DNA of 64,000 nucleotides from Caldilineaceae bacterium (GTDB lineage: Bacteria; Chloroflexota; Anaerolineae; Caldilineales; Caldilineaceae). The stretch covers positions 2,780,880 through 2,844,879 of the forward strand of contig OZ242287.1 in assembly GCA_965207495.1 (NCBI GenBank). Direction: 5' to 3'. Position numbers and translations under genes: made by a program. Below the pieces are notes generated by a model. The model saw only the letters and a list, made by a program, of their open reading frames with translations, was not told where the DNA came from and made no database searches. Below are positions 8,753 through 59,900 of this stretch, in pieces; position 1 is the stretch's first letter, and each line of letters opens with the position of its first letter.

Positions 8753-10462
<1,710 letters not shown>

Positions 10463-10522
10463 GGGATTCTCTATCCTGTTGAAAAGATGGCCTTCTTGCA
10501 CTGTCTGCGAAATCACATCTTG

Positions 10523-12286
10523 CTACCCGGCGCTGGAGAGTTCCGCGCTCCGGCTACTCTCGGACATCATTCGTAAGCTGTCCGGCGGAGAGTCGCCGGC
10601 CGGCGGCTGCGGATGATCGATTTCGGCGCCGCGGGCCGGTAACCCGCTCTCCGCACCTGGGTGATAGTTGATAAGGAAGTATTCGACGGCGTCTGAGATC
10701 GCTGTCCAGCTGGCCTCTATGATATTGGTGCTGGCGCCAACCGTTGTCCAGTTGTGCACGCCGTCGGAACTGGTAATGAGCACACGTACCGATGCCCCCG
10801 TACCCTGGTCGCTGTTGATGATCCGTACTTTATAGTCAAGAAGGTGCATACGGTCCAGGTGGGGAAAGTGACCCTGGATCGCCTTACGCAGCGCCAGCAT
10901 CAGGGCATTGACCGGCCCATTGCCCTCGGCTACCTCGTGATAGATCCGGTCCCCCACCTCAGCCTTGATCGTCGCCTCAGATGAGAGCCCGCGCCCGGCG
11001 CGGTTCGCCACCGATACGCTGTAGTCAATGAGCGAGAAGCTCGGCTGATAACCTTCCTGCGACCGGCGCAACATGAGATCAACGCTTGCTTCGGCGCTTT
11101 CAAATTCGAAGCCGACGTTCTCCAACTCTTTAATCTGCTGGAGCACCGCCCTTTCCTTCTCCCGCGACAGCCCTTCGACGCCGAACTCATCGGCCTTGAT
11201 CGCGATATTGTCCTTGCCGCTGAGCTCACTGACAAGAACCCGCGTCTGGTTGCCCAGGCTTTCGGGCTCAACGTGTTGGTAGCTGTCCACGTTCTTGAGG
11301 ACCGCGTTGACATGCGTCCCGCCCTTGTGGGCGAAGGCGCTCTGGCCGACAAAAGGCTGGTGCGCATTGGGCCGCAGATTCGCCAGCTCATTGACGTAGT
11401 GGCTGAGGTCGGTCAGGTGCGTCAGCTTCTCCTCCGAGACGACGTCATAGCCCATTTTCAGCTGTATATTTGCGACAATACTGACGAGGTTGGCGTTGCC
11501 GCAGCGTTCCCCATAGCCGTTGATGGTCCCCTGCACATGGCTGCAACCGTTGCGGACCGCCTCCAGCGAGTTGGCCACGCCGGTGTCGCTGTCGTTGTGG
11601 GCGTGGATGCCAAGGGTGACCTTCCCTTCCCCTTTCTGGCCGCCAGCCCGATCGCCGTTCCCACTTTCACGGGGGGCCGCCAGCACAGCTGACAGGTCGC
11701 GGCGCACTGCTCGCACAATCTTGCCAACTTCCCACACGAGGCTTCCACCGTTGGTGTCGCAGAGTACGACGCAAGTGGCCCCGCCGGCGATGGCCTGTCT
11801 GAGTGTCTCTACGGCATATTCGGAATTCTTCTTGTAGCCATCAAAGAAATGCTCGGCATCGTAAACCACCTCACGACCTCGGCTAGCCAGATAGGCCACC
11901 GACTCGCGAATCATGCGCAGATTCTCTTCCGGCGTCGTCTGCAGCACATCGCGAACGTGCAGGTCCCAACTCTTGCCGAAAAGAGAAACGACCGGCGTGT
12001 TCGCCTCCAGCAGCAGCTGAATCTGCGGGTCGTCAGCCGGGTCAGTGTCCCGTTTGCAGGTGGATCCGAAAGCGGTCAGACGCGCCTGTTTGAGTGACAG
12101 TTCGCTCCCGGCCCGTTCAAAGAACTCCATGTCTTTCGGATTGGAGCCGGGCCAGCCGCCCTCGATGTAGTCCACACCGAACTCGTCCAGGCGAGCGGCG
12201 ATATGCAGTTTGTCGTCACAGCTGAGCGACACGCCTTCGGCCTGAGCGCCGTCGCGCAGTGTCGTATCAAAAAGTTGGATCTTCAC
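10523..12286 (-). CDS. cimA: LeuA-family aldolase of the citramalate synthase (CimA / LeuA-related) type
   Basis: [42 protein letters not shown] and GIHAHND match the LeuA-related (citramalate synthase) subgroup. It is distinct from the true LeuA (DGEQSPG, 32633..34405) and the homocitrate synthase (REGEQ, 51700..52857). CimA versus a second IPMS needs phylogeny or an assay. Confidence 0.65.
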   Translation of the reverse strand: MKIQLFDTTLRDGAQAEGVSLSCDDKLHIAARLDEFGVDYIEGGWPGSNPKDMEFFERAGSELSLKQARLTAFGSTCKRDTDPADDPQIQLLLEANTPVVSLFGKSWDLHVRDVLQTTPEENLRMIRESVAYLASRGREVVYDAEHFFDGYKKNSEYAVETLRQAIAGGATCVVLCDTNGGSLVWEVGKIVRAVRRDLSAVLAAPRESGNGDRAGGQKGEGKVTLGIHAHNDSDTGVANSLEAVRNGCSHVQGTINGYGERCGNANLVSIVANIQLKMGYDVVSEEKLTHLTDLSHYVNELANLRPNAHQPFVGQSAFAHKGGTHVNAVLKNVDSYQHVEPESLGNQTRVLVSELSGKDNIAIKADEFGVEGLSREKERAVLQQIKELENVGFEFESAEASVDLMLRRSQEGYQPSFSLIDYSVSVANRAGRGLSSEATIKAEVGDRIYHEVAEGNGPVNALMLALRKAIQGHFPHLDRMHLLDYKVRIINSDQGTGASVRVLITSSDGVHNWTTVGASTNIIEASWTAISDAVEYFLINYHPGAESGLPARGAEIDHPQPPAGDSPPDSLRMMSESSRSAELSSAG

Positions 12287-27159: not shown

Positions 27160-27489
27160 TCAACTTTCCGGCCCTTCTGCGGTAAAGCGGTAACCATTGC
27201 CGTACAGGATTACTTCGACACCACCATCTACGACCAGAGGATGGCTGAATTTTACGCCAAGGACCCCATCATAACCCCGATCTGACGCCTTCTGCTCCAA
27301 ATCGGCCAGGCCCTGCTCGATAGCTTTCTCGATCAGTGCTTCGTAGTGGGTCATGCGCCCGCCAACGAGATTGCGAATGTTCTCCCTGACATCTCTTACG
27401 ATATTGGCGGCGTATACAACGACTACGAAGATGAGTTCGCCGACTTCGACATCGGAGCGGTGGGGTTGATCGAGGGCGATCAGTTTCAT
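27160..27489 (-). CDS. YbjQ / UPF0145 (DUF74) family protein
   Basis: ORF 27160..27564. ATG at 27489 (MKLIALDQ..) overlaps the upstream stop as ATGA. ..ANIVRDVRENIRNLVGGRMTHYEALIEKAIEQGLADLEQKA..GYDGVLGVKF matches the YbjQ pattern (ANxxRDxxxxIRxxxGGR..Y). Confidence 0.75.
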   Translation of the reverse strand: MKLIALDQPHRSDVEVGELIFVVVVYAANIVRDVRENIRNLVGGRMTHYEALIEKAIEQGLADLEQKASDRGYDGVLGVKFSHPLVVDGGVEVILYGNGYRFTAEGPES

Positions 27490-29417
27490 TTTCGTTCCCT
27501 GTCTGCCTCGCGGTGATCTGGGACATTGACGGTTACGTTCACCTCCGTGCGGCGACGACCCCAAGCGATTTTCAGAATGAGAAACAGCAGTAGCAATCCA
27601 CCTAGAATGGGGAGCAAGTTGCGCGGATTGCTAATGGTACTTCCATTCTTTACCCAGAACAGCAGCCAGGAGACATCGCCGGAAAGCACGGGGCCCAAGT
27701 CCTCCAAGGCTTGGATAACTCTGCCTGGCCACTGCTCCCTATTCATTCCTTCTGAGAGAAAGCGAAGTGCTGCCTGCAGGTTCTGACTTTGAAGTACCGC
27801 ATTCTGAACAGGTTCGCTTTCGAGCAAAGAAATCAGTGCCGGATTGTTCAGAACGAAACTCGCCAGAAATTCTGCATCCTGAGGCGACAGTGCCGTCAAA
27901 TACCTAGTGGCGATTAGAGAAAGTTGATCTGTGTTCAAATCGCCGAGGAGCAAGGATCGAGCAGATTCCAATGTAAGGGCCAGTAGTGCCTCTCTCTCCT
28001 CCGAGTTCAGTGACATCGACTTACGAATGGCTGTCTCGTCTTCTAGCCTCAAGACGTTTTCCAATGCATCGCGGTCAGCGAATTCAGCTGCTTCACTCAC
28101 GAGATACAATTGGTGCTGGACCACTTTGAGAATGAGGTCGCTAGCAAGTTCGGCCCAACTGATGAGTGTTTCCGATCTTCCCGAATGCCGAAAAATCTCC
28201 AATGCTTCTTCAGGAAGAGTTTGCATGAACTCGAACTGCCCTGAATTGAGCAGATCCTCCAGCCTGTCCGGCTCATACTCTTCCACCAATGCAACCAGTT
28301 CTGAAAGCTTGGCAAGCTGATCTACCTCGGTAAAGTCCAGAATCTGCTTGAAGCGTGGATTCGTCTCGGACAATTCGAGGACCCGTGCAAACTTCCGGCG
28401 GAATTCCTGCCACTGGCTGAAAGCACTATCTGCAACATTTCTCGCCAGAGTAGGCAATTCCAGTCGCAGCCCTTCACTCACAGCCTCAGCCATCCATTCT
28501 TGCATTTCAGTCTTGACGGCGTCTTCTTGGAATGAGTCTTGGATGAAAGGCAGCGCACCATCTCTGGAGTTGAACAGGTCAATGACGACAAGAGCGCCTC
28601 CGACAATCCAACCAACAAAAGGGATGCCCACGGCTGCAACTCTGACTAGGATACGTGACAGGATTCGGCCAATGATATTCTTCGTAAAGACGCTGGCCAG
28701 CCTCTTGGCTAACTCGACCCCAATTGTTGAACCGATAACCACTGCGACGCCACCCGCGAGGTTCGAATGAATCTCGAGGATGTCAAGGAAGCTCTGATCT
28801 GTATCCGGATCGAGCTTCAACAGTTCCAATTCTGCCTCTATCTGCCGGTCCAACTCTGCTGTTAACGTTTTTGAGAACCGTCCACCGATGAATTCCTGCA
28901 CGCAGATCAGTGCCGAAGACGCCGACTTAGCCGTCACCAATCGAATTTCTTCAACGATGTCGTCTGCGACGACAGTCGAAAGTTCGTCGAATCGACTCGC
29001 GAATCCATCGGAGCCAAAAGCTTCCTCAGCCACCTTCGTAGCCAACTCTTCGGCTTTGGATGGCGACCACGCCGACCAGATCAGTTCCCAGAAACCTGTA
29101 TCACTGCCTACCAATTCGATTGCGTCACTTACGGCGTTGTCTACTCTCGAGTCCATTCCCATGTCTCGCCAGTGGCGTTTTATAATCTCAGCCACATCGA
29201 GACTACTTTGCTCATCCGCCACCACCGTCTGGGTGATCCGGTTCAATTCGTCGCGCAGACTGGCTTCGTCAACCTGGTCACATTCTTCAAATGTGTAGGA
29301 AATGGGAGCGGTACTTTGAGCCCTTGCCACACTTGGGGGCGACAACGACATAAGCAGCAGCGAGATGAAAAAAGAGACCATCAGACTGTAGATCTGCTTC
29401 TGGCTTGGCTTCTGCAC
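27486..29417 (-). CDS. modular membrane protein, small paralog (one copy of a ~196-aa helical module); family not recognised
   Basis: 643-aa ORF. GTG at 29417 overlaps the TAG of the upstream gene (TAGTG); ATG alternative at 29381. Signal-peptide-like N-terminus (..FFISLLLMSLSPPSVARAQ), a Cys-pair domain, a Gly-rich hydrophobic hairpin, a helical module, and a C-terminal TM (LLPILGGLLLLFLILKIAW) followed by GRRR. Confidence 0.7.
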   Translation of the reverse strand: MQKPSQKQIYSLMVSFFISLLLMSLSPPSVARAQSTAPISYTFEECDQVDEASLRDELNRITQTVVADEQSSLDVAEIIKRHWRDMGMDSRVDNAVSDAIELVGSDTGFWELIWSAWSPSKAEELATKVAEEAFGSDGFASRFDELSTVVADDIVEEIRLVTAKSASSALICVQEFIGGRFSKTLTAELDRQIEAELELLKLDPDTDQSFLDILEIHSNLAGGVAVVIGSTIGVELAKRLASVFTKNIIGRILSRILVRVAAVGIPFVGWIVGGALVVIDLFNSRDGALPFIQDSFQEDAVKTEMQEWMAEAVSEGLRLELPTLARNVADSAFSQWQEFRRKFARVLELSETNPRFKQILDFTEVDQLAKLSELVALVEEYEPDRLEDLLNSGQFEFMQTLPEEALEIFRHSGRSETLISWAELASDLILKVVQHQLYLVSEAAEFADRDALENVLRLEDETAIRKSMSLNSEEREALLALTLESARSLLLGDLNTDQLSLIATRYLTALSPQDAEFLASFVLNNPALISLLESEPVQNAVLQSQNLQAALRFLSEGMNREQWPGRVIQALEDLGPVLSGDVSWLLFWVKNGSTISNPRNLLPILGGLLLLFLILKIAWGRRRTEVNVTVNVPDHREADRERK

Positions 29418-32400
29418 TATGCTTGACCTCCCAAGAGTCGACTTATAGTGTCACGAATCTTCGGCAGGCCCTGGCGGCGGCCGAGCCAGACGACTGAAAG
29501 CGCTAGAGCTACCAGCAGAAGGAGCGCTCCTAAGAGAATGATTGATTGTACCTGATGGTAGTGCCAGTATAGTTGCCAGGGTTGGTTGCCCGAGGAGACG
29601 TCAATCGCGCCTGATAGCATAAGAGCTGTGGGCCACCAGGCTTGAGGCTTCTCGACTCTTTCAGAGACGAAAGCCAAGGCTGGCTCGAAGTTCTGCGAAT
29701 TCGCCACAGTCTGCCCAACACTCTCTTTGTCAAGCTCAGCCAACATAGTCGGTTTCTGGTCAATAGACTGTGCCACCAGAACAATGTTCTGTTCCGTCAG
29801 GTCAATACTATACTCGTGGAGCCACATTATTTCGGGGTCTGCTTCCAAAGAAAATATAGATTCCCTCGTTTCCGCTTCCAGCTGGACTAGCCATGTCAAT
29901 GTGTCCGAACCAACAAGAGCCAAAGCCTTGTCAAGTTCCTCTCGATTCCTGAAGTGATCGGGGTCCGCTTCCTTATACAGCTCTGTCTCGGCGACCTTAT
30001 CAATGGCGTCCCCGGCCAACTGCGCCCACTCGAGTGTCACTGCTGGATTCCCGCTCCAGCTAAGGATTAGAAATGCAGACTGAGGTGAGGCGAGTAACTT
30101 CTCGAACTGCCCAGACTCGTAGAATCCTGGCAGCAAATCGGGCGCAAGGGTATCCTCCGCAGTGACGACTAGGTCCGAGAGCTTCTCTATGTCATTCACA
30201 TCAGCAGTTTCCAAGGTAATTCTCAAACGCCGAAATTCGGTAGCAAGTTCTAGCACACGTCTGAACTCTTCCTCCAGTTCCTCAGAAGCTCGCAGAACGG
30301 TTACCAGCTCCGGCCTCTGTGTTATTCTTATTGCGAATAGTTGCCGGGCCTTAGTTGAAAGTCGCGAAAGATAGGACGCGAACCAGGACAGTTCATCTTC
30401 GGACAAATCAGATAACAGGGCGCCTCTTGCCTCTTCCGCCGATAGATGAAGCACGGTTTCTCTTTCTTCCGGCTCCATGGCCATGAGTCTCTGGATCGCA
30501 AGATCGTGTTCAAGGGCAAGCACGCGTTCCAACACCTCCCTTCCAGTGTATTCTGCCGGAAGCGAAACGAGGTAAAGCCCCTTCTCCACTACTTGCACGA
30601 TAGAGTCGCCAGCCAATTCGGCCCAGGCGAGGACGACTGGCGGACTACCAGTTTCGCGAAGGATTTCATTGGCCTCCTGAGGAAGAGCAAGGATCTCCTT
30701 GAACTGGCCCGATTCAATCATGTCCGCTAACTGCTCCGCATCCAAAACCTCGGTGGCCACCTTAACCAGCAATGACAGTTCCGCCACTTGGTCAGCCGGT
30801 GTCTCGACTAGAATCGAATTGATTTCACTGAATTCACCAGCTAGGTTGAGAACTGCGGCAAACTGAGACTTCAGGTCCTCAGTCTCCTGTAAGAGGGAGA
30901 TCAGGCCACGATCCCGAATTAAGAACGCCACCAGCAGGACTCGAGAGGACAAAGGCAGATCCAAGAGATAAGAGATCACCCAGTCAGTCTGTGAACTGGA
31001 CAGCTCTGAAAGTATCCACTTGGTCTGCGCAGTAGGCAATCCCAGCAACGCCTCTCGTTCTTCCACTCCTTTCTGCATCAGGTCCTGGATCAACAAGGTG
31101 TCTTCCAGAGCAAGGATCTTCTCCAGAGTCTCATGACTCCCAACCATTTCGGGCGATGTGTACTTATATAGTTCCGTCTCGACCACACTGACAATTCTCA
31201 CGTCGGCAACTTGGGCCCACCTCAGGACCAAGCCCGGATCAGAGGTGTCACGAAGTATTTTGAATGACGCTCTAGGCAGATCAAAGATAAGCTTGAAATC
31301 ACCCGATCCAATGAGTCTGTTCAACCATTCTATGCCTAGTACATCGACCGTCACCTCAACCAATTCGGACAGCTTGTCAACCTGGTCGGGCGTAACATCT
31401 TCCAGTATGAGACGAAAGTCTTCATTATTTTCGGCCAGCCTTAGGACGTGCTCGAAGTCCTGAAGGAAACTCCGCCATCGTCTGTAGATTTCGATCGTGA
31501 CTGATTGGGAGATCCCTGGCATTGAGTTGGTTAATTCCTGATCCACGACAGACACGATTTCACTGCGGATGGTCTGCTTCACATCTTCAGACTTGAGGTC
31601 ATCCTGAATCTGAGGCAATGAACCATTCCAAGCCTGATATACGTCGTAAATTATCAGGGCCCCACCGATTACCCAGCCTGCAACTGGGACGGCAGCGGTG
31701 GCCGCCCTACCAAGAATACGCGTGACGACTTTACCAAGAATTCCTTGGGCGACCCTTCTGGCAATAACATTAGCAATTTGTGTGCCCACGATTGCGCCAA
31801 TGCCGACAAATGACAATGTCCGGTCTCCCAAATCGACAAAGTCAGTCTCTCCTTCAATGTTTCCTAATTCAAGACTTTCCAACCAGGCTTTCGTACTATC
31901 CTCCAAGACTTCCGACATGACATCAGAAAACTTGGCGCCGATGAATTCCTGTACACATAAGAATGCAGAAGAAGCAGACTTCACTGTCATCAAATGAATC
32001 TCGACGGTCAAGTCTTCGACGATTGCCGAGGACAGACTGTCGATGGCTGTGCGAAATTCTGGAGTGTCGAAAGCCTGATTGGCGATTGCCTCCGCAAACT
32101 CTGCCGCCTTTTCTTCCGACCATCCGGAAAATATCCGATCTAGTGTACCTCTTTCGTCTCGAACCCGTTGTGTAGCTTCGTCGACAGCCTTGTCCACCAC
32201 GCCGTCCAGGTCAAGTTCAGTCCAATTCTCTGCGACGATCCCGGCCAAGTCCAGCCCACTCCTGTCTCGTTCCAATACCGAACTAGTGATACGATTGAGG
32301 TCGCTTAATAGGAGTGCTTCTTCGACTTCCTCGCACTCGGAAATCGTAAACGTAGGCGAGGCATCCTGTGCCTTTGCGGTTGCAGGCGGCAGAATTGTAC

Positions 32401-32503
32401 CGAGTAGGAAAAGCGCGAGGAAAACTCTGCAAAACGGCTGATACCATTGCTCAGCCTTTCTGCAGAATCTGGTGGCCCGGGGCTCTTGGTCTGGAGTCGC
32501 CAT
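29417..32503 (-). CDS. modular membrane protein, large paralog (three tandem ~196-aa helical modules); family not recognised
   Basis: 1028-aa ORF. N-terminal ~340 aa are collinear with the 643-aa neighbour. Modules at about aa 345-540, 541-737 and 738-930 (nt ~29714-31471). C-terminal TM (IILLGALLLLVALALSVVWL) followed by GRRQ. Confidence 0.7.
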   Translation of the reverse strand: MATPDQEPRATRFCRKAEQWYQPFCRVFLALFLLGTILPPATAKAQDASPTFTISECEEVEEALLLSDLNRITSSVLERDRSGLDLAGIVAENWTELDLDGVVDKAVDEATQRVRDERGTLDRIFSGWSEEKAAEFAEAIANQAFDTPEFRTAIDSLSSAIVEDLTVEIHLMTVKSASSAFLCVQEFIGAKFSDVMSEVLEDSTKAWLESLELGNIEGETDFVDLGDRTLSFVGIGAIVGTQIANVIARRVAQGILGKVVTRILGRAATAAVPVAGWVIGGALIIYDVYQAWNGSLPQIQDDLKSEDVKQTIRSEIVSVVDQELTNSMPGISQSVTIEIYRRWRSFLQDFEHVLRLAENNEDFRLILEDVTPDQVDKLSELVEVTVDVLGIEWLNRLIGSGDFKLIFDLPRASFKILRDTSDPGLVLRWAQVADVRIVSVVETELYKYTSPEMVGSHETLEKILALEDTLLIQDLMQKGVEEREALLGLPTAQTKWILSELSSSQTDWVISYLLDLPLSSRVLLVAFLIRDRGLISLLQETEDLKSQFAAVLNLAGEFSEINSILVETPADQVAELSLLVKVATEVLDAEQLADMIESGQFKEILALPQEANEILRETGSPPVVLAWAELAGDSIVQVVEKGLYLVSLPAEYTGREVLERVLALEHDLAIQRLMAMEPEERETVLHLSAEEARGALLSDLSEDELSWFASYLSRLSTKARQLFAIRITQRPELVTVLRASEELEEEFRRVLELATEFRRLRITLETADVNDIEKLSDLVVTAEDTLAPDLLPGFYESGQFEKLLASPQSAFLILSWSGNPAVTLEWAQLAGDAIDKVAETELYKEADPDHFRNREELDKALALVGSDTLTWLVQLEAETRESIFSLEADPEIMWLHEYSIDLTEQNIVLVAQSIDQKPTMLAELDKESVGQTVANSQNFEPALAFVSERVEKPQAWWPTALMLSGAIDVSSGNQPWQLYWHYHQVQSIILLGALLLLVALALSVVWLGRRQGLPKIRDTISRLLGGQA

Positions 32504-32561: not shown

Positions 32562-32604
32562 TTCCAGGAAACAAAAAAAGGGGCGGCGATTCGGTTTCTC
32601 CCGT
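32562..32604 (-). terminator. intrinsic terminator downstream of leuA
   Basis: Minus strand: GGGGCGGCGAT-(14 nt)-ATCGCCGCCCC (11-bp perfect stem) followed by TTTTTTT, 29 nt after the leuA stop. Confidence 0.85.
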
Positions 32605-32632
32605 ATCGCCGCCCCTTTGCTCGATACCTTAA

Positions 32633-36384: not shown

Positions 36385-38175
36385 TTACCAGCTCGGCTGC
36401 ACGCCGCTATAGCCCTGAACATGACCTGGCTTCGGCCGCCGAATCAGTTCATCCACGGCCGCGCCCGGCGCAACCATCGGATAGACATTTACTTCCTCTT
36501 TTACCTGGAAATCGACCAGGTACGGCCCATCGGTCGCATGCGCCTGCTCCAAAACCGAAACAACCTCGCTCGGATGGCGGACCACGGCACCGGGAATATC
36601 GTATGCCTCCGCTAGCTTGACGTAGTCCGGCGAAAGAATCGGTGTGCCGACATAACGCTTATCGTAGAAAATCTGCTGCCACTGCCGGACCATGCCAAGG
36701 AATCCGTTATTGATAATCGCGATCTTTACCGGCATTTTCTCTTGCTGGATGGTGGCCAGCTCCTGCAACGTCATCTGGAACCCGCCGTCGCCCGCCACGC
36801 ACCAGACCAGCGCCTCCGGATCTGACATCTGCGCGCCCAGGGCCGCCGGCAAAGCATATCCCATTGTGCCGAGGCCGCCGCTCGTCAACAGCATCCCGGC
36901 CTGTTCGTGTATATAGTACTGGCTTTCCCACATCTGATGCTGGCCGACGTCAGTGACAACAATGACGCGCTTTTCAGTCCTCTCTGTGGCATGCCAGAGT
37001 TGACGTATGACATAGGGCGGAATCAGCTCTTCGACCTCATATTGAATGATGTCAGCCTCGTCCGTCTCCGAACGCCATTCGCTCAGGGTATCTACCCATT
37101 CCTGGTGACGCCTGTCCTTGACCTGAGGAAGAAAGGCCGGAAGCGTTTCCGCCAGATCGCCCACAACGGCCACGTCGGGAACGATATTCTTACCGACCTC
37201 AGCCCGGTCAAGTTCGAAATGGATGATCTTGGCATCGGCCGCGAATCGATCGAGTCGCCCCGTAATTCTGTCGTCAAAGCGCATGCCCATTGCGATCAGC
37301 ACATCGCAGGACTGTACAGCCCGATTCGCGAATGCCTCACCGTGCATGCCGCCCATTCCCAGGCTGAGCGGATGTGTCTCAGGAATGTTGCCCGTGCCCA
37401 GCAGAGTCGTTACCACCGGAATACCCGCCTTCTCGACCAGCTGCAGCAGCTCGTCGCTGGTATTCGAAAGGTGGACGCCATGACCGGCCAGAATCAATGG
37501 CCGCTCTGATTCGTTAAGCAGGTCGGCCGCCTCCTGCACCGCTTCCGGACTGTATTCCGGCCACGGCTCGAAGCCGGGAAGATTGATCTCAAAGTCATAG
37601 CGAAAAGTGCCGGTCTCAATCTGAACGTCTTTGCAGACATCGACGAGAACAACACCCGGCCGACCTTCGCGGGCGATATAGAACGCCTCTTTCATGACCA
37701 GCGGCAATTCGGCTATATCGGTCACAAGATAGTTGTGTTTGCAGACCGGCTGCGTCACGCCCACGACGTCCGACTCCTGAAACGCGTCGGTACCCAGCAG
37801 GCTGGTCGGCACCTGGCCCGTGATTGCGACAACCGGAACGCTGTCCATCTGGGCCGTCGCCAGTCCGGTGACCAAATTCGTCGCACCCGGTCCGCTGGTG
37901 ACGATGCAGACGCCTACGTCGCCCGTAGCGCGCGCGAAACCGTCGGCCATATGTGCTGCACACTGCTCATGGCGGACCAGCACGTGATGGATTCGGCCGT
38001 CTGCCTCGTACTCCGCCAAGGCGTCATAAGCGGGCAAGATCGCACCGCCGGGGTGGCCAAACACAGTCCTGACTCCCTCACGCAGCAGGGATTCCCAAAT
38101 CATCTGCGATCCGGTAAATTCCTGGGGCCCCAGATCGTATCCGCTATCTGCCGGTTCTCTTTTGGCTAGCGCCAT
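36385..38175 (-). CDS. ilvB: acetolactate synthase large (catalytic) subunit
   Basis: 596 aa. ThDP enzyme motifs [14 protein letters not shown] and [16 protein letters not shown]...GDGGFQM..NN. Confidence 0.95.
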
Positions 38176-38312
38176 CCGTGTCCTCCTGCAAGCTGGCTCA
38201 ATTACTGGCCGGATCCAATTTCAGACCCAGTGAACAGGTAGCATTCTGTCCAGCTACCACTATCTAAGATGCTCTACACGTCGCCGAAGTTCCCCGATCG
38301 ACTTCCCCACCT

Positions 38313-38342
38313 AAAGAAAAACCCTTCCCGGCTGGGGAAGGG
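38313..38342 (-). terminator. intrinsic terminator in the ilvB leader (candidate attenuator)
   Basis: Minus strand: CCCTTCCC-CAGCC-GGGAAGGG (8-bp stem) followed by TTTTTCTTT. Located about 60 nt after the leader ORF stop and about 138 nt before the ilvB ATG. Confidence 0.7.
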
Positions 38343-38401
38343 TCTGCACTGACCTGAGCAAGAAGTCCGTTACTCTGGACTTCCTTGCCTTCGCCAACCA
38401 A

Positions 38402-38494
38402 TCAAGGCCTGGAGCCGCTTACAAGAAGGGCTACAAGGCCGAGAAGAAGGACCTTAAGGCTAATTAGCAGGTTCAATACAGTTAAACTTCTCAT
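38402..38494 (-). CDS. candidate branched-chain amino acid leader peptide (30 aa)
   Basis: Manual translation, minus strand, ATG 38494..38492 to TGA 38404..38402: MRSLTVLNLLISLKVLLLGLVALLVSGSRP. That is 11 Leu + 4 Val + 1 Ile out of 30, mostly CTT/GTA codons. No clear SD. Too short for the ORF track. Confidence 0.5.
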   Translation of the reverse strand: MRSLTVLNLLISLKVLLLGLVALLVSGSRP

Positions 38495-38545
38495 TTTCAG
38501 CGAGTTGGAACAGTGAATACAGTCGTCGCTCAATATCTCGTCCCT

Positions 38546-38573
38546 ATTATATTCACAATTGTAAGATGTGCAA
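38546..38573 (-). promoter_or_regulatory. sigma70-like promoter for the ilv-leu leader
   Basis: Minus strand TTGCAC (38573..38568) - 16 nt - TATAAT (38551..38546), in a locally AT-rich stretch about 50 nt upstream of the leader ATG. Confidence 0.5.
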
Positions 38574-38802
38574 CTTCCAAATCACGAAAATGCACAGTCA
38601 CCCGAATTGGACCCAAACGTATGCAGGTTGCATGGGCCGCCTGACGGGACGACGACTTCTGTAATCCAGAAATCAAGCTAAGAGTAGGCCGTATTTCGTG
38701 TTGCCTGAGACGCGATTCCTGCTGTGACATAACAGAATGGTCCTACAATGCGTCCAAGGACGAGCCTCGCATTCCCAAATTCCGCCCAGCAAGTGGCGAA
38801 AA

Positions 38803-38832
38803 AAGACACGATTCGCGCGTATGTGCTATAAT
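38803..38832 (+). promoter_or_regulatory. possible extended -10 promoter for the 38881 gene
   Basis: TGCTATAAT (38824-38832), with a weak -35 AAGACA 18 nt upstream. Divergent from the ilv promoter. Confidence 0.35.
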
Positions 38833-38880
38833 GCAGTGCATAACAGTGTGGGCATATAACGAGTGCGGAGAACGATTGGA

Positions 38881-39720
38881 ATGGCAGACCGAATTCTCAT
38901 GCTGGAGCGACTATCAGCTGTCTTCGACGAAGGGCAGGCAGAGGTTCTGGCAGAAGTCATCTACAATTCCTACAACAATCTCGTGCGCCGCGAGGATTTC
39001 AGTGAGCTCAAGGAAATCGTCCGCGATCTAGGAGCTACGCAACAGCGTACTGAGCAGCGCGTTGAGGATTTAGCAGAGGCACAACAGCGTACTGAGCAGC
39101 GCGTTGAGGATTTAGCAGAGGCACAACAACGTACTGAGCAGCGCGTTGAGGACTTGGCCGAGGCGCAACAGCGTACTGAACAGCGCGTTGAGGAACTGGC
39201 CGAGGCGCAACAGCGTACTGAGCAGCGTGTTGGGGATCTGTCAGTGGCGCAGCAGCGGACTGAAACCGCCGTCCAAAGTCTGGCCCGCGAGGTAGGCGGA
39301 CTGAGCAATCGGATCGGCGGCGATCTGGAAGACGTGGCCGCCATCGTAATTGAGGATACGCTGGAGCGAGAATTGGGATGGGAGGTCGAAGAGCTGAGCC
39401 GTGTTTGGCACACGAGGGACGGTGTTGACGAGGAAATCGACGCCTTCGGAAAAGCGCATGACCCATCCCGACCTCAAATCCCTCTTTGGATTGTGGGTGA
39501 AGTGAAGTTCAATCTGACGATGCGAGACGTCGACCGTTTTTCCAAGCTGGTGGAGAGGGCAACCACACACCTGGAAGGCGAAGTCGTTCCGGTCTGCTTC
39601 TGCTACAGGATCCGGCCCGCAGTACAGCAAAATCTGCTTGAAAAGGGTTACCGCCTGGTTCTTTCAAATGGGCGCATGCCACAAGCGGTGAATGAAAATC
39701 ATGCTAACCTTTCGTCATAA
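38881..39720 (+). CDS. coiled-coil repeat protein with C-terminal PD-(D/E)XK nuclease-like motif (DUF3782-like family)
   Basis: ORF 38863..39720. ATG at 38881 preferred. About 5.5 copies of the 14-aa unit [15 protein letters not shown]-terminal ..EEID(193)AFG...WIVGE(213)VK(215)FNL fits a D..ExK restriction-endonuclease-like core (numbering from 38863). Family recalled from memory (often mis-annotated as chordopoxvirus fusion protein). Confidence 0.55.
39037..39267 (+). repeat. 42-bp in-frame tandem repeat (about 5.5 copies)
   Basis: ACGCAACAGCGTACTGAGCAGCGCGTTGAGGATTTAGCAGAG and near-identical successors. Encodes the (A/T)[13 protein letters not shown] heptad-like units. Confidence 0.9.
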
Positions 39721-51699: not shown

Positions 51700-52857
51700 T
51701 TAAGCCGGCGGAGGCGCCACAGTCACCGCCCGACTGTGGTACTCTCGCAGCAACACATCCACATCATCCAGGCTCAACTTTCGCTGGTCCGCCTCCACCT
51801 TGATGTGCGCGGTCACCTCCTTCACCTGCGGATCCGTCAGGTCCAGCTGCAGCTGCTCGGCGCGCTGCTTGACCGCGTTCCACCCCGTGAGTCGATGTGC
51901 AATGTGCAGATAGCGGGTCAGACCGAAGTCCTCCGGATCCAGGATCTCGTAAGTATCCGGATTGTTAAGAATCGCCTTGGCATGAATGCCTGCCTTGTGC
52001 GTGAAAGCTGTGTAACCGGTAATATAGTTGTTAAATGGCACATCAACGCCCACGATCTCGGCAACAAAGTTCTCCACCTCACGCAACATCGGCAGATTGT
52101 ATTTGCTGCGAATCTGATCGGGATCTTGCGCATACATGCGCGCCACCAGGCCCCCCAGCGGCGTAATCCCGTTGCGCTCGCCAATCCCCAGCACCGAAGT
52201 ATCAACGTGCGTCGCCCCGGCCGCCAGCGCACAGTAGGAATTTGCGATCGCGCAGCCCGTATCATTGTGCCCGTGAAACTCGATATCGCAGGAGACCACC
52301 CCGCGCAGCGTTCGCACCAGGTCATGCACCTGCAGCGGCGTGGCGATTCCAACCGTGTCCGCGATCCCCACTCTGTCAACCCCAATCTGGTCGACCTCGC
52401 GGTAGACCGTCAGCAGGTCGACAAGGTCGCTGCGGAAAGAGTCCTCGCTGCTGAAACGGACCTCCAGACCCTGGCTCTTGATGAACTCGACAACCTGCAC
52501 CGCACTGTCGATGATTTCGCGGATCGACTTGCCATGCGAGAACTCGCGCAGGTAGCTGCTCGTGCCGAAGAGGACGTCAATGCCGTCAACGCCGGTGTCC
52601 ACGGCCAGACGCGCGTCATCCAGATGGCAGCGTGTATGGGTCAGCAGTTTCGTGCTCAGCCCCAATCCCGCGATGCGTGAGCAATCCGCACGGCTCTGCG
52701 GGCTGGCGGCAGGAGAAGTCAACTCCAGATATTCAACGCCGAAGGCATCCAATAGCCGGGCGATTTCATCCTTCTGCCCGCTGTCAAAAAAAGCATTGGC
52801 AAACTGCTCACCCTCCCGCAATGTCGACTCGATTATCGAAAAATGTTCTAAGCTCAT
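51700..52857 (-). CDS. hcs: homocitrate synthase
   Basis: ORF 51700..52953 (TTG). ATG at 52857 preferred ([19 protein letters not shown]). [12 protein letters not shown]. About 385 aa, lacking the LeuA regulatory domain. First gene of the lysine cluster. Confidence 0.8.
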
Positions 52858-52887
52858 CCTCGCGCTCCCGCCGATCTCAATGGCAAT

Positions 52888-52921
52888 AAAAAAACCGGTC
52901 CATCCTGTCTGGAATGGCCGG
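52888..52921 (-). terminator. intrinsic terminator in the homocitrate synthase leader (candidate attenuator)
   Basis: Minus strand: CCGGCCATTCC-AGACA-GGATGGACCGG (about 10 bp with bulges) followed by TTTTTTT. The U-tract ends 30 nt before the hcs ATG. Confidence 0.65.
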
Positions 52922-52965
52922 TGGCTACGGTTGCAACATCTGAGCAGGCGCAAACAACAGACAGG

Positions 52966-53305: not shown

Positions 53306-53987
53306 CTCTCCGGGAATTGGCAGCCAGTTGACCAGAACCGGGTGAATAAAACAGGACAAAGGCCGAGTCAATTCGCTATGCTATGTCAGTGGGCCGCAAA
53401 GGAGCCCCTAACCCAACCAATAATCAGGAAAAATGCCAGGGATTCAGCACCGTATTCCCGTTCCACGAGCGTTGAGGGTGGAAGACCTTCAGTTCCTGGC
53501 ATCGGAGAGTCCAAGACAAGTGCAGCAGTCAACATGAGTAGCGCGCCTACACAAGCAGTCGGCAAACGGAAAAGGGCGCTTCTGTTCCATGGAATGCCTG
53601 CTCAGTTATTCGCCATCGGCGAACCCTTACCCTACTTTCCCGGTTCCGTTCAATCTATAGACGCCTTCATAAACGCATGCATTATGCAGGTTGGACATTT
53701 TCTATACGGCACAGCTACGTAGGGTTGTCGCCTACCTTTGTAGAAGTGCGATTCGCTCCACTCGGATGGGTCCAGGTGAAGGCTGAGCTACAGACACTTT
53801 TCGCCTGATTTACTCTGGTAGTCCGACAGTTCTGTGAGGCCTGTAACCCGCGATTTCGCTCCATTTTCCGAGGTCCGCCGCAAATGCACAACTGCTTGAC
53901 ACCTCCAATGTGGATAACATAAATTTTCACTGAGGATCGTGCGACATTTTGCGATAACACGTTAGGTAAAGGTGAGTCTTGGACCGA

Positions 53988-56900
53988 ATGAGGCAAAGGA
54001 CAGAGGCGCTACAAAGGCGGAAAGAGTTCCTGATCGGTTCACTGATCGGCCTCTGCGTCATGCTGCTTGCTTTGCTGGCGGCCGTCGTAACGCCGCGTCC
54101 CCGTGCCGCCCTGGCTCAGGACGCCCCGCGGGTAGCGATTTCTATAGGCGAAGCTACGCTGACCCAGGGAGACGTCACCTACGTCCATGCCGGATTCTAC
54201 AACATGCCCCAAGATCCCGATGACGCCACCGCATTCGGCACTATATCCTTCCGGTACTATTTTGATCGTAACTCTGACGGCTCTTGGACCAACGCAGACA
54301 ACTGCCTGACGGGGCTGGTCGGAAGTGACAAATATATCACCAACGCATATTGGAGATCCCCTTGGGACCACGGTCCACACCCTCTTGAACTTACAACGAC
54401 TTGCCCGGTCGGCGACTACAGGTTTCGGGTGGTCGTAACGGATAGGGACACCACCCCCCACACCAAACTTGTTACCAGCACACATGACTTCAGAGTAAAT
54501 GTAGGCCCCTCTGTGACAATCGAAATGCCGTCTGGTCCCTACTACCGCGGCACAGCTATCAATCCAACCATCAAATTCAATGACCTGGCACAAGGCGCCG
54601 ATTACACTTACAAGGGGCATCTGATGGCCAGGAACCCCTCCAACTATGCCGATGTCTGCGAAGGAACGGGGCTGGACAGACACAACAAATTCACTTTAGA
54701 TGATGTCTCCGGAAACCCAGTGCAAAAGTCGGTCACCATCACCGACAACTGTCCGGCAAATGAGTACTACATAGATGTCGTTTTGTACGACTCCGACAAC
54801 CGGAAGCGAGGATCGGACAGGAAAGAATTCGAAATCACTACGGATCCCAACGCCACTCCGTCCGTAAGCGTCAGCATGTCCGAGAGTTCCCCGGTCGCTC
54901 CAGGTACGGAATTCACCGTCACTTTCTCGTTTATGGATATTCAACCCGGCACTCAGACGAGGAATACCGATTATCTGACCAATACCAGCACAAATCAGGC
55001 AGTAGGCAGTATGGACTGCGGAGGGAGCCTGGTAGGATGGGGGCAGGACGTACAATCCGCGTTCACTAGCAACCCCTATGTAAATCGTGTGACGATTCCC
55101 TCCGACTGTCCCGCCGGCGCCTATAAGATGGTAAGCGAAATAGAGGACAGATTAGGAAATGACATTATTTCCGGTTCGATCGACTTCACCATCGGCGATC
55201 CAAATCTAACCCCAACCGCGCCAACTGTTTCCAATATGACGGCCAAACAGAATTCGCCGTTCAGCCAGCAGCTTCCCGAGGGAACCGGCGGCGACGGTAC
55301 TTTGACTTACAACGCGACCGGCCTGCCTACGGGTCTCACCTTCACGAGCTCAACGCGCACCATCGCCGGCACACCATCTGCCTCAGGAACATCCACCGTC
55401 AGATACACAGTCACGGATAGCGACAATGACTCGGACTACGTAGAATTCACGATCACGGTCGACCCAGATCTGACGCCTACCGCGCCAAGCGTTTCCGGTT
55501 ATACTGCAAAACAGAATACGCCATTCACCCAGCAACTGCCTGAGGGGAGCGGCGGAGACGGAACACTAACGTACGATGCAACGGGTCTGCCCGTAGGTCT
55601 AACCTTCATTGCCACAACTCGTACGATTACAGGCACGCCGACAGGCACAGGGTCATCTCCTGTCCGATACACGGTCACCGACAGCGACGGTGACTCGGCC
55701 CACGTTGATTTCAACATCACGGTTGAAGCCGATCTGACCCCTACCCTCCCCGCCATTTCAGGGTACAACATTAGGGTAGGCGTACAATTCACCCAGCAGC
55801 TGCCCGCGGCGACAGGGGGAGATACGCCTCTGGAGTACTCCGTCACAGATCTACCTCAAGGTCTCAGCTTTACCGAAGCGACGCGTACGATTACGGGCAC
55901 GCCAACAACCGCGGAAGCCCCCACAGTGACCTATACGGTTCGAGACAGTGACGGCGACGAAGTGAGTACGACATTTACAATCACAGTCGCCGCCGATCTC
56001 ATGCCGACGCTCTCAACCATATCGGGATATACGGCCAGAGTCGGGTCGCTATTCACTGAGGTGCTGCCGGCGGCGACAGGGGGCGACACGCCGCTGGAAT
56101 ACTCCGTGACAGACCTTCCCAACGGCCTCAACTTTATCGAGACGACGCGTACAATTACGGGAACGCCGACAGCAGTGGAATCTCCGACCGTGACCTACAC
56201 GGTGAGCGACGATGACGGCGACGAAGCGAGCGAAACGTTTACGATCGCGGTTGCAGCCGATTTGACGCCGTCACTTCCTTCGATAACAGGTTTCACGGCA
56301 ATGGTTGGCTCGCTGTTCAGCGAGGTATTGCCGGCAGCAACCAGCGGCGATACGCCGCTGGAATACTCCGTAACAGACCTTCCGAACGGCCTCAGCTTTA
56401 CCGAATCGACGCGGACCATCACGGGCACCCCCACAGCGGTGGGATCTCCGACCGTGACCTACACAGTGACCGACGACGACGGCGACGGAGACAGCAAGAC
56501 CTTTACGATCACAGTCGCAGCCGATCACATGCCTGCATTTGGCACCATTGCGGGCTATACGGCCAGAGTTGGGTCGCTGTTCACCGAGGTGCTGCCGGCG
56601 GCTACCGGGGGCGACACACCTCTGGAATATTCGGTCTCAGACCTACCCGACGGTCTCAGCTTTACCGAAACGACGCGTACAATTACGGGCACGCCGACAA
56701 AGGTGGAAGCCCCCACGGTGACCTATACGGTTCGCGACGATGACGGAGACGAAGGGAGTACGACCTTTACAATCACAGTCGCTGCCGATCAAATGCCGAC
56801 GCTTTCCACCATTTCCGGCTATACGGCCAGAGTCGGGTCGCTGTTCACTAAGGTGCTGCCGGCGGCGACAGGGGGCGATGCACCGCTGGAATACTCCGTG

Positions 56901-59900
56901 ACAGACCTTCCCAACGGCCTCAACTTTATCGAGACGACGCGTACAATTACGGGAACGCCCACGACAGAGGAATCCCCGACCGTGACCTACACGGTGAGCG
57001 ACGATGACGGCGACCAAGCGAGCGAAACGTTTACGATCGCGGTCGCAGCCGATCTGACGCCGTCACTTCCCACCATATCGGGTTACACGGCCAGAGTAGG
57101 TTCGCCGTTCAGTGAAGTGCTGCCGGCGGCAACAGGGGGCGATACGCCGCTGGAATACGCCGTAACAGACCTACCCAACGGCCTCAGCTTTACCGAATCG
57201 ACGCGGACCATCACGGGCACGCCGACAACCGTGGAATCACCGACCGTAACCTACAAGGTGCAGGACGATGACGGCGACGATGCGAGCAAGACCTTTACAA
57301 TCGCCGTCGCCGCCGATCTTCAGCCAACACTGGCGACCATAACCGACACCCACGCCAAGCTGACAAAACTGTTCACCCTTCAGTTGCCCGCTGGCACCAG
57401 CGGAGACGGCGACCTGGACTACAATGCAACTGGACTGCCTCCCGGTCTTACCTTCGTCACATCCACTCGAACGATCACAGGTACACCGACGACTGCCAAC
57501 AGATATGAAGTCACTTACACAGCAACCGATGAGGACGAAGACGTCGCGCGGCAGACGTTCTTCATCGAAGCATTCGCAATGCCTTCCCTGCAAGCGGTAC
57601 AAGACTTCATGGCAACGAAGGATGACGTATTCACACTCGTGCTAACCGCTGTCTCAGGCGGAAGGGCGCCGTTCGACTACGATGCCACCCCTCTGCCGAC
57701 TGACCTGTCTTTTGTGGAATCCTCACTGACCATCACTGGTACGCCGACAGTCATTGAAGACATCACCGTCACATTCTCAGTAGAGGACGAGGACGGAGAC
57801 ACGGCGAGCCGCGAATTCAAGATCACCGTCAGCGAGGGCGACACAGCACCTGCATTCCCCTACGAGATCCCCGACTTCGATCTGCGAGTGGGCAATCCTT
57901 TTGCGGTGACGCTGCCCAGCGCGACTGGCGGGAACGCCCCGTATACCTATACGATTTCAGGACATCCCAACACGCTCACATTCAATTTGGCCACCAAAAG
58001 ACTCGCTGGCACGCCCAACGCGAGCCAGACCGGCGTGCACCAGGTTACCTACACCGTGACGGACAGCGATCTCGACGAAGTATCACAGACTTTCGAGCTG
58101 GATGTCGCAGCAGACAACCAACCTTCAACACCGTCCATAGGCGACATGCACATGAAGGTCGGCAGTAGTCTGCGGGCGGAGTTGCCGGCAGGTACAGGCG
58201 GAGACCCACCCTATACATATACGATCTCGGCTTTGCCGTCCGGATTGACCTTCAACCTGACAACGCGAATCTTGTCTGGCAGGCCAAACTCGGCCGGCGC
58301 AACAACCGTAACATATACAGTTCTTGACAACGACAGTGACTCCGCTGCTAAAGATTTTACGATCAACGTCTATACACTACCGTCTCTGTCAAACGTCTCA
58401 GATTCGTCAGGAATGAAGGACGAACTATTCACCCTCACGCTTCCCACCGCTTCCGGAGGCAGGTCCCCGCTCGAATACTCCGTAACCGGTCTGCCAGCCG
58501 GCTTAGCGTTTATTGCAAGCTCGCGCGTCATTACCGGAACGCCGACCCAAGTCGAGATTGCAAACGTTACCTACACTGTTTCGGACAAAGACAACGATCG
58601 AGACAGCGTCACGTTCAAGATAACCGTGACCGACCTGGATCAAACTGTGGTCAACAATGGCGGCAACAATGGCGGCAACAATGGCGGCAACAATGGCGGC
58701 AACAATGGCGGCAACAACGGCGGCAACAATGGCGGCAACAACGGCGGCAACAATGGCGGCAACAACGGCGGCAACAATGGCGGCAACAACGGCGGCAACA
58801 ATGGCGGCAACCAGCAGAACCCGCCGGCACTGACCCTTTATGACTCGACAGGCTTCTCTGCCACCGTCGGAGAGCAATTCACACAGCAACTTCCGGCGGC
58901 AAATGGAGGAACACCACCCTACAGGTATAGCGTCTCCACCCTGCCCGACGGCCTGACTTTCAATAGCGGTACCCATACGATATCGGGAACGCCCACAACT
59001 GAAGGCGCGACGACCGTCACCTATACCGTGCATGACAGCAACTCCAATTCTGTCGGCGATGACTTCACAATTACAGTCAATGCAGCGCAAACCAACCCAC
59101 AGAGTCCCCAACCACTGACAGTCGTAGATGTGACAGGATTCACGGCGACAGTAGGGGAGCTATTCGAGCAGCAGCTGCCTTTTGCAAGTGGAGGTTCACT
59201 GCCATACGCATATAGGGTCACGACCCTCCCCGCCGGCCTGGACTTCATAATGTTAAGGCGTACCATTACGGGAACGCCCACGATTACGGGGACGACTGTA
59301 GTCACTTACACTGTGACCGACGGCGACTTTTTCTCTGCAAGCGACGCTTTCACCATAACCGTTCAGAGTGCCGGCAGTAACCAGGGCAGCGGCAATCAGG
59401 GCAGCGGCAATCAGGGTAGAGATAATCAGGGCGGCGGCAATCAGGGCGGCGGCAATCAGGGCGGCGGCAATCAGGGCGGCGGCAACCAGGGAGGCAGCAA
59501 CCAGGGAGGCAGCAACAAGGGCAATTCTGGCAACCAGGGTAACTCTAACAACAACAATCAGCAGAAATGGGTTCCACCGTCATCGTATTCGCCGCCTCCC
59601 CAGCAACAGTGGTCGCGCTCTGCCGTCCCGGTAGCAATTACCATCCCATCCTGGCTGAACGTACGCAGAGGGCCCGGGCTCGACTATGAGGTGATATCCA
59701 CGGTTTCTCAAGGAACTCGGGGAAACATCTACGGCAGGGACCCCGCTGACAACTGGTTCCAGGTCCAGATTGATCAAATAAGTAACATGGTGTGGCTCTG
59801 TCAGAACCTTGCCACCGTCGAAGGCTCTTTGGACAACGTACGATTGCTGGCACAGTGGGAAATCGATCTCATTCCCAAGCCGGCCGACGGCCCCGTGGCG

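Follow-up and report, generated by a model that had tools for sequence, protein, structure and literature searches.

The block at positions 27160-32503 on the minus strand of a 64,000-nucleotide (nt) stretch of a Caldilineaceae bacterium genome (contig OZ242287.1; the whole stretch is hereafter the window) encodes two paralogous membrane proteins, A and B, followed by a small protein, C, of the YbjQ/UPF0145 family. A and B belong to a previously undescribed protein family, designated X here, and the unit conserved across phyla is a small X gene with a YbjQ gene downstream of it. The facts at gene level are solid, as is the conserved pairing. The explanation that accounts for them best, held at somewhat below even confidence, is that X and YbjQ make up a membrane complex serving as an envelope scaffold or sensor. 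YbjQ/UPF0145 proteins are widespread in bacteria, including Escherichia coli, and structures of members date from the structural-genomics era. To our knowledge the family has no known function, and a search of the literature found no functional study of YbjQ/UPF0145. A translationally coupled partner that is conserved across phyla, the first of its kind for this family, gives YbjQ an experimentally testable lead.

The X family and its pairing with YbjQ

The linkage was examined at 64 loci, annotated with domain hidden Markov models (HMMs) built from segments of the alignment. In 58 of these, cyanobacterial loci included, the small X gene is followed by a YbjQ gene, and the linkage, whose absence from other genomes a first-pass annotation of the window had named as counter-evidence, is therefore present well outside this one. 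Four of the remaining six loci are truncated at the end of a contig (L018, L039, L042 and L047), another (L050) lies in a frameshift-ridden assembly, and the last (L060) is taken up below. The X stop codon is at most 11 nt from the YbjQ start in 40 of the 58 loci, and the spacings include a 4-nt overlap (27 loci), a 1-nt overlap (6) and a gap of 2 nt (5).

In Caldilineaceae, with few exceptions, the genes are ordered ilvC, leuA, none or one large paralog, the small paralog, YbjQ and gltB. The pair also occurs, in unrelated neighbourhoods, in the cyanobacterial loci L059, L061 and L062, the last from Nostoc sp. RF31YmG, and in L057 and L058. It adjoins psaE and ndhO in L062 (Nostoc) and an SLH-domain gene and dxs in L061 (a 7.9-Mb genome), and in L059 it lies beside a cyanobacterial-looking gene set. 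The GC-rich contig L057 carries it next to uppS, cdsA, dxr and rseP, and L058 is a further contig, like L057 without assigned taxonomy. The large paralog is a lineage-specific extra. Nothing argues more strongly for a functional link between X and YbjQ, probably a physical one, than the conservation of the pair.

Other arrangements were seen at three loci. In L029 (11932-13973) and L054 (11812-13671), both from Caldilineaceae, X and YbjQ do not overlap as usual but lie about 2 kb apart. The metagenomic locus L006 (1765-5817) has X, YbjQ and then a second X-family gene (597 amino acids, aa); this extra paralog is downstream, whereas the extra paralog of Caldilineaceae is upstream.

The first-pass annotation had described the window block as three open reading frames (ORFs) with two collinear paralogs, a module present three times in one and once in the other, and overlapping junctions, and these points were borne out by ORF calls, BLASTP and the sequence itself. 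Genes A (29417-32503; 1028 aa; no family match), B (27486-29417; 643 aa; GTG start) and C (27160-27489; 109 aa from its ATG; acidic) are arranged head to tail at the coordinates first given for them, on the minus strand like all their features described below. The A stop and the B GTG start share 1 nt in TAGTG (29415-29419; CACTA on the plus strand), and the B stop overlaps the YbjQ-gene start in ATGA (27486-27489; TCAT on the plus strand). At the A/B junction of relatives there is an overlap of 1 or 4 nt or a gap of 2 nt.

A and B are 34% identical over 530 aa (E 3e-94). Residues 331-534 of B match A twice more, at 536-739 (E 3e-36) and 741-980 (E 4e-26), and hence A contains three copies of a module of ~200 aa and B one. 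As judged by the domain HMMs, the domain order of A is N-H-M-M-M-C, followed by a transmembrane (TM) helix and a basic tail, and that of B is N-H-M-C. Hydropathy analysis gave the four hydrophobic segments that had been proposed, namely an N-terminal signal-like segment, a Gly-rich pair, and a strongly hydrophobic C-terminal helix followed by Arg residues.

In A, the predicted signal peptide (aa 1-45; 32369-32503) includes a hydrophobic stretch at aa 23-45, and AKA|Q is the likely cleavage site. The acidic, helical N-domain (aa 46-228; 31820-32368) aligns with that of B and carries a Cys pair, C57 and the Cys within SASSAFLCVQEFIG. A Gly-rich TM hairpin with an Arg-rich connector, assigned by hydropathy, spans aa 229-289 (31637-31819). 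The three modules follow at aa 340-539 (30887-31486; from BLASTP against the B module and the module HMM), aa 540-740 (30284-30886; 40% identical to B 331-534, E 3e-36) and aa 741-~940 (29684-30283; 30% identical to B 337-588, E 4e-26). The predicted C-terminal TM helix (aa 986-1008; 29480-29548) has a Kyte-Doolittle value of 2.9 and is followed by the basic tail GRRQGLPKIRD...

The layout of B is the same on a smaller scale. Its signal peptide (aa 1-33; 29319-29417), with an ARA|Q site read from the sequence, precedes an N-domain (aa 34-215; 28773-29318) containing C46 and C172. The TM hairpin (aa 219-284; 28566-28763) was delimited by conservation and hydropathy; its G, R, R, P, G, G and D residues are invariant or near-invariant, and a GALP motif follows. 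The single helical module, aa 337-534 (27816-28409), is the repeat unit, and the C-terminal TM helix predicted from hydropathy (aa 600-620; 27558-27620) leads into the basic tail GRRRTEVNVTVNVPD... (27489-27557).

Neither large protein had been placed in a known family at first, and the searches agree. Against Pfam and NCBIfam, A and B gave nothing above curated cut-offs, the best sub-threshold Pfam scores being those for DUF6624 (16.8 bits against a cut-off of 27) and DUF697 (13.7 against 27.7), and no significant match was found in PADLOC or PHROGs. Sequence searches of the PDB with B alone and with a 48-sequence profile reached E 0.094 at best. When 80 diverse X members were scanned singly against Pfam, no family occurred in more than four of them and none was significant. 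DUF6624, PatD, OSCP and other matches at E 0.005-0.3 were consequently rejected as below cut-off and not recurrent across members.

The AlphaFold2 model of B is entirely helical, with a mean predicted local distance difference test score (pLDDT) of 78, made up of 80-92 in the N-domain, above 90 in the module and 36-60 in the hairpin. Modelled separately, the B N-domain has seven to eight helices (pLDDT 84.6). Foldseek searches of the PDB gave a best E of 0.1 for the full B model and of 0.43 for the N-domain, and a search of the BFVD viral library gave 0.44; the top fold matches are generic helical repeats and coiled coils, none of them significant. A and B fail every membership test run and cannot be filed under a known kind, and the check for profile hits to a characterised family, which would have spoken against a new one, found none.

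Close homologs of B number 109, the few with organism names being from Caldilineaceae metagenome-assembled genomes (MAGs). A profile search of 1.84 billion cluster representatives extended X to 542 clusters, defined at 50% identity, at E <= 0.001, and to 278 at E <= 1e-30, and distant members retain the same architecture. Starting from a distant member, the search returned cyanobacterial proteins, those of Nostoc sp. RF31YmG, Cuspidothrix issatschenkoi LEGE 03284 and a Thermosynechococcaceae MAG; a second homolog search with a diverse profile returned Caldilineaceae only. No X-YbjQ fusion was seen, as none of the 80 X members scanned matched YbjQ_1. X sequences stand in databases as hypothetical proteins only, covered by no Pfam or NCBIfam model, and a family of 542 clusters with no Pfam model and no detectable relatives by fold is a gap in protein-family coverage.

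Topology of X and the position of YbjQ

That both large domains of X lie outside the cytoplasm had been proposed from the positive-inside rule for A and B only, and family-wide charge and Cys data now support it. The two N-domain Cys are invariant in 48 Caldilineaceae homologs. Among the 80 diverse members, 77 have both, two have neither and one has the second shifted, and 36 of the 80 proteins contain exactly two Cys in total. Such joint retention or loss is the pattern expected of a structural disulfide and argues for an oxidising, extracytoplasmic location of the N-domain. Over the same 80 members, the mean net charge is +5 in the connector between TM2 and TM3 and +3.3 in the 15 residues past the last TM helix, against -11 in the N-domain and -10 in the module region. 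The connector is an amphipathic helix with an Arg at about every fourth residue (moment 0.48, compared with 0.27 in the N-domain), and the N-terminal segment ends in an AxA-type site in both A and B.

A location of the N-domain and modules outside the membrane, with the basic connector and tail in the cytoplasm, is thus well supported, though indirectly, by the charge and Cys patterns of the family. We infer that only one topology satisfies the positive-inside rule at both basic segments. X would be exported with a cleavable signal peptide, which would place its acidic, disulfide-bonded helical N-domain outside the membrane; the chain would then cross the membrane as the Gly-rich hairpin, one TM helix in and one out, holding the Arg-striped amphipathic connector in the cytoplasm. 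It would emerge again as one (B) or three (A) acidic, all-helical modules of ~200 aa, and the C-terminal TM helix with its cytoplasmic basic tail would re-anchor it.

Gene C had been assigned to the YbjQ family, and it is an ordinary member of that known family. Its PF01906 (YbjQ_1) score of 54.8 bits (E 1.6e-14) exceeds the gathering cut-off of 23, the match covering positions 16-98 of the 103-position profile. The product is a small, single-domain protein without a signal peptide, and its length lies within the 100-115 aa or so of soluble YbjQ proteins. The NCBIfam YbjQ equivalogs (PRK02877, PRK01119 and others) score 41.8 bits at best against a cut-off of 160, and C, being far below every equivalog cut-off, is not an ortholog of the named subfamilies. 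In PHROGs it matches only phrog_15412. Its PDB homologs are 2gtc (E 3.6e-9), 1vr4 (E 5.5e-9) and 1y2i (E 2.5e-6), each with five chains per entry.

The YbjQ proteins encoded next to X are acidic (mean net charge -4.8) and lack a signal peptide. A cytoplasmic YbjQ could reach only the basic connector and tail of X, and docking at these sites is therefore plausible. Within the clade, YbjQ identity and X identity are correlated (Spearman 0.65). The motif RRRQDVNVTVVLPE is conserved in the tails of Caldilineaceae X, and a looser motif, basic residues and then a beta-like [VI]x[VI]x[VI] stretch, is enriched across the family, with 10 of the 80 tails containing it compared with 1.8 in shuffled tails. 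In E. coli K-12, ybjQ overlaps amiD, the gene for an exported peptidoglycan/cell-wall amidase, by 4 nt (L065, 4594-5744), so that here too YbjQ is coupled to a protein of the envelope, the second such case.

In the scaffold or sensor reading, the three genes would be co-translated and their products would assemble into a complex of X proteins and YbjQ at the cytoplasmic membrane. The ATGA overlap suggests that YbjQ is made in fixed proportion to X. Acidic YbjQ would most likely dock on the basic loop and tail and cluster or regulate X, and X, with its fast-evolving exposed part, would join the extracytoplasmic space to YbjQ. The ancestral unit would be small X with YbjQ, the large paralog being a Caldilineaceae-specific duplicate whose external arm may lengthen or shorten by tandem module duplication.

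Several observations weigh against this reading. In L060, a WD40 gene stands after X instead of YbjQ. Hydrophobicity is only moderate in the first hairpin helix (mean 1.49), and the model is least confident in the hairpin, at pLDDT 36-60, so that the topology rests on indirect rules. The charge of the connector does not covary with that of YbjQ (rho -0.12, p 0.37). The tail motif was rejected as a universal YbjQ docking site, many tails being just 3-15 residues long or simply 'RRR'. In addition, no known fold or family favours a scaffold or sensor over other roles.

The conserved hairpin and the five-chain YbjQ entries would also suit a channel or transporter, in which the Gly-rich hairpins of X, with a near-invariant Asp at the outer end of the second helix, would oligomerise into a pore and YbjQ would form its cytoplasmic cap or gate. 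The hairpins may in that case form a pentamer templated by a YbjQ ring. The invariant or near-invariant G, P, G, G and D of the hairpin and the two near-invariant Arg of the loop are consistent with such a pore, as is the fixed stoichiometry that tight translational coupling suggests. However, each X chain has just three TM helices, and apart from the one Asp there is no polar pattern that would line a pore. The searches revealed no resemblance to a channel family or fold, and a channel would leave the large, fast-evolving external domains and variable module count unexplained. No functional study was found to back the Pfam name of YbjQ, 'putative heavy-metal-binding'. A channel is accordingly considered quite unlikely.

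A more elaborate form of the membrane complex, which we regard as very unlikely, would be a new class of envelope machine, with a YbjQ ring nucleating an X oligomer, the hairpins as a gated pore or force-transmitting core, and the external helical arm, sized by its module number, as a ruler or sensor that spans the wall space. If true, it would give a first function to YbjQ/UPF0145, including YbjQ of E. coli.

Evolution and setting of the locus

The first-pass annotation had suggested an envelope module of variable length, and this is seen in relatives, which carry 1, 2, 3, 5 or ~10 modules. Only some Caldilineaceae loci have the large paralog, with 2, 3, 5 or ~10 modules, and by position the three modules in the window are orthologous to those of L022 and L001. 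The site itself is constant, with leuA, X, YbjQ and gltB placed identically in ~50 Caldilineaceae species. The locus is thus fixed but hypervariable, with an exposed arm whose length would be set by duplication of the 200-aa module.

The longest array noted is in L024 (3086-9766), where the large paralog has 2226 aa and ~10 modules. These share 83-93% identity among themselves and ~75% with the module of the adjacent small paralog, and the pattern points to a recent tandem amplification, possibly with gene conversion.

X evolves faster than its surroundings. In genomes where leuA, gltB and ilvC are 91-96% identical to those of the window, small X is 41-49% and YbjQ ~78-83% identical. Over nine closer comparisons, the ratio of nonsynonymous to synonymous substitution rates (dN/dS) is 0.14-0.33 for X and 0.02-0.10 for YbjQ and the flanking genes, and purifying selection on X is by this measure 4-8 times weaker than on the flanks. 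In the four closest genomes (L007, L008, L009 and L015), X has the lower dS, at 0.12-0.32 compared with 0.24-1.6 for the flanks (leuA, gltB and ilvC), the sole exception being gene A relative to gltB in L007 (0.225 and 0.236), while the protein divergence of X in these same comparisons is above that of the flanks. Species exchanging alleles could explain the low dS, as could an artefact of codon bias in its estimation.

This fast divergence, together with the recently amplified modules, would also be expected if X were chiefly exposed at the surface, as a receptor, a shield or a protein for host interaction, and phages or animal hosts exerted diversifying pressure on it, with YbjQ as a cytoplasmic helper, for example in biogenesis, and not a signalling partner. 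The E. coli overlap of ybjQ with the gene for an exported envelope enzyme fits such a role, as does GC content at third codon positions (GC3) that is lowered by 0.10-0.23 across one whole Caldilineaceae clade, which by its bin names appears to include sponge-associated MAGs. Nevertheless, the gene-wide dN/dS of X is well below 1, and the pair is conserved where GC3 is not depressed, namely in Litorilinea-like and other Caldilineaceae and in L057 and L059. An exposed surface protein is in part the same proposal as an envelope scaffold or sensor, and the two are compatible; as a separate explanation it is held to be unlikely.

The lower GC content noted for the block at first reading is real. 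In 1-kb windows the block has a GC content of 0.49-0.53 and the flanks 0.55-0.60, and the two X genes have 0.516 and 0.517. GC3 differs too, at 0.555 for A and 0.568 for B, against 0.64-0.78 in neighbouring genes, 0.69-0.77 for the adjacent biosynthetic genes and 0.58-0.78 for the other 31 large ORFs of the window. This composition is not a sign of recent insertion, because the position between leuA and gltB is fixed in the ~50 Caldilineaceae species.

For the same reason, a recent genomic island was rejected despite the atypical composition. Horizontal acquisition as an island would account for the low GC content and hypervariability of X, as would a polymorphic toxin and immunity protein, where a large, variable exported product precedes a small coupled one, and the lower dS of X in the four closest genomes is suggestive of allele exchange. 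Yet this explanation is largely refuted by synteny, and the GC3 depression is shared by a whole clade. Furthermore, the 64-kb window contains no mobility or tRNA genes, an Rfam scan of it was also empty, no plasmid matches were found, and Pfam and PADLOC revealed no toxin or defence domain. YbjQ belongs to a widespread, housekeeping-type family under strong constraint, and X would be anchored in the membrane of its own producer at both ends. An island or toxin is therefore regarded as extremely improbable.

The block lies within a run of minus-strand genes (12414-38175) ordered ilvB, ilvN, ilvC, leuA, [A, B, YbjQ], gltB, gltD, leuC and leuD, and continuing with genes for a methyltransferase, leuB and a phosphoenolpyruvate carboxylase; the order of amino-acid biosynthesis genes around the block recurs in relatives. 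Its upstream boundary is the intrinsic terminator of leuA (32573-32618, minus strand; predicted energy -35.9 kcal/mol, z = -5.9), in which the stem GGGGCGGCGAT/ATCGCCGCCCC at 32580-32615 is followed by U7 at 32573-32579. With an 11-bp G+C arm and 14 pairs in the fold, it has the features of a Rho-independent terminator. A strong terminator had been reported here, and it is real, but the coordinates given for it (32562-32604) were off by ~11 nt. No terminator-like fold was found in the interval between YbjQ and gltB.

Elsewhere in the window, a 2471-aa protein (53979-61394, plus strand) contains 15 He_PIG immunoglobulin-like repeats together with SH3_3, HYR and Big_9 domains and is probably a giant surface adhesin; the GC3 of its gene (0.64) is below that of most neighbours. 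ORFs at 10523-12286 and 51700-52953 (minus strand) match the window leuA by phmmer, indicating more than one LeuA-like gene, and the 587-aa ORF that adjoins the first of these (8753-10516, minus strand) has no phmmer match to leuA. Between ilvB and a sulfatase gene, the region 38000-39720 has a low GC content (0.517) and a local reversal of GC skew, and includes a 285-aa ORF (38863-39720, plus strand; GC3 0.58) with no Pfam hit.

Comparison with known systems

DUF697/YcjF (PF05128) was considered for X on account of a weak match on the hairpin connector of A (E 0.051; 13.7 bits), and YcjF resembles X in having a basic stretch and then a Gly-rich hydrophobic helix. However, hhalign against E. 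coli YcjF gave a probability of 0.25% (E 0.24) with the aligned stretch outside the hairpin, and DUF697 is absent from the 25 Pfam families shown for the scan of 80 members. On these sequence comparisons, X is not regarded as a relative of DUF697/YcjF.

Alpha-helical repeat (solenoid-like) proteins and variable-length helical 'ruler' proteins, such as phage tape measure proteins, share with X the tandem helical modules whose number varies among relatives. The best non-significant fold matches of X are designed helical repeats, axonemal ARM-like proteins and tape measure proteins, but none is significant and the query-normalised TM-score (TMq) is at most 0.2. The repeat unit of X is ~200 aa in place of 30-40 aa, and in X the array appears to have a membrane anchor on either side.

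With the periplasmic four-helix-bundle sensor domains of chemoreceptors and histidine kinases, the analogy is topological only and concerns an external helical domain of ~170 aa placed between a hydrophobic segment at the N-terminus and a TM helix. No sequence or fold match links the two; X lacks a cytoplasmic signalling domain and has only a connector of ~25 aa, and its N-terminal segment looks like a cleavable signal peptide.

The one component with known relatives is C, a clear member of YbjQ/UPF0145 (PF01906) at ~105 aa and 36% identity to E. coli YbjQ. The two differ in their genetic partner, which for E. coli YbjQ is the downstream amidase and here is an upstream polytopic membrane protein.

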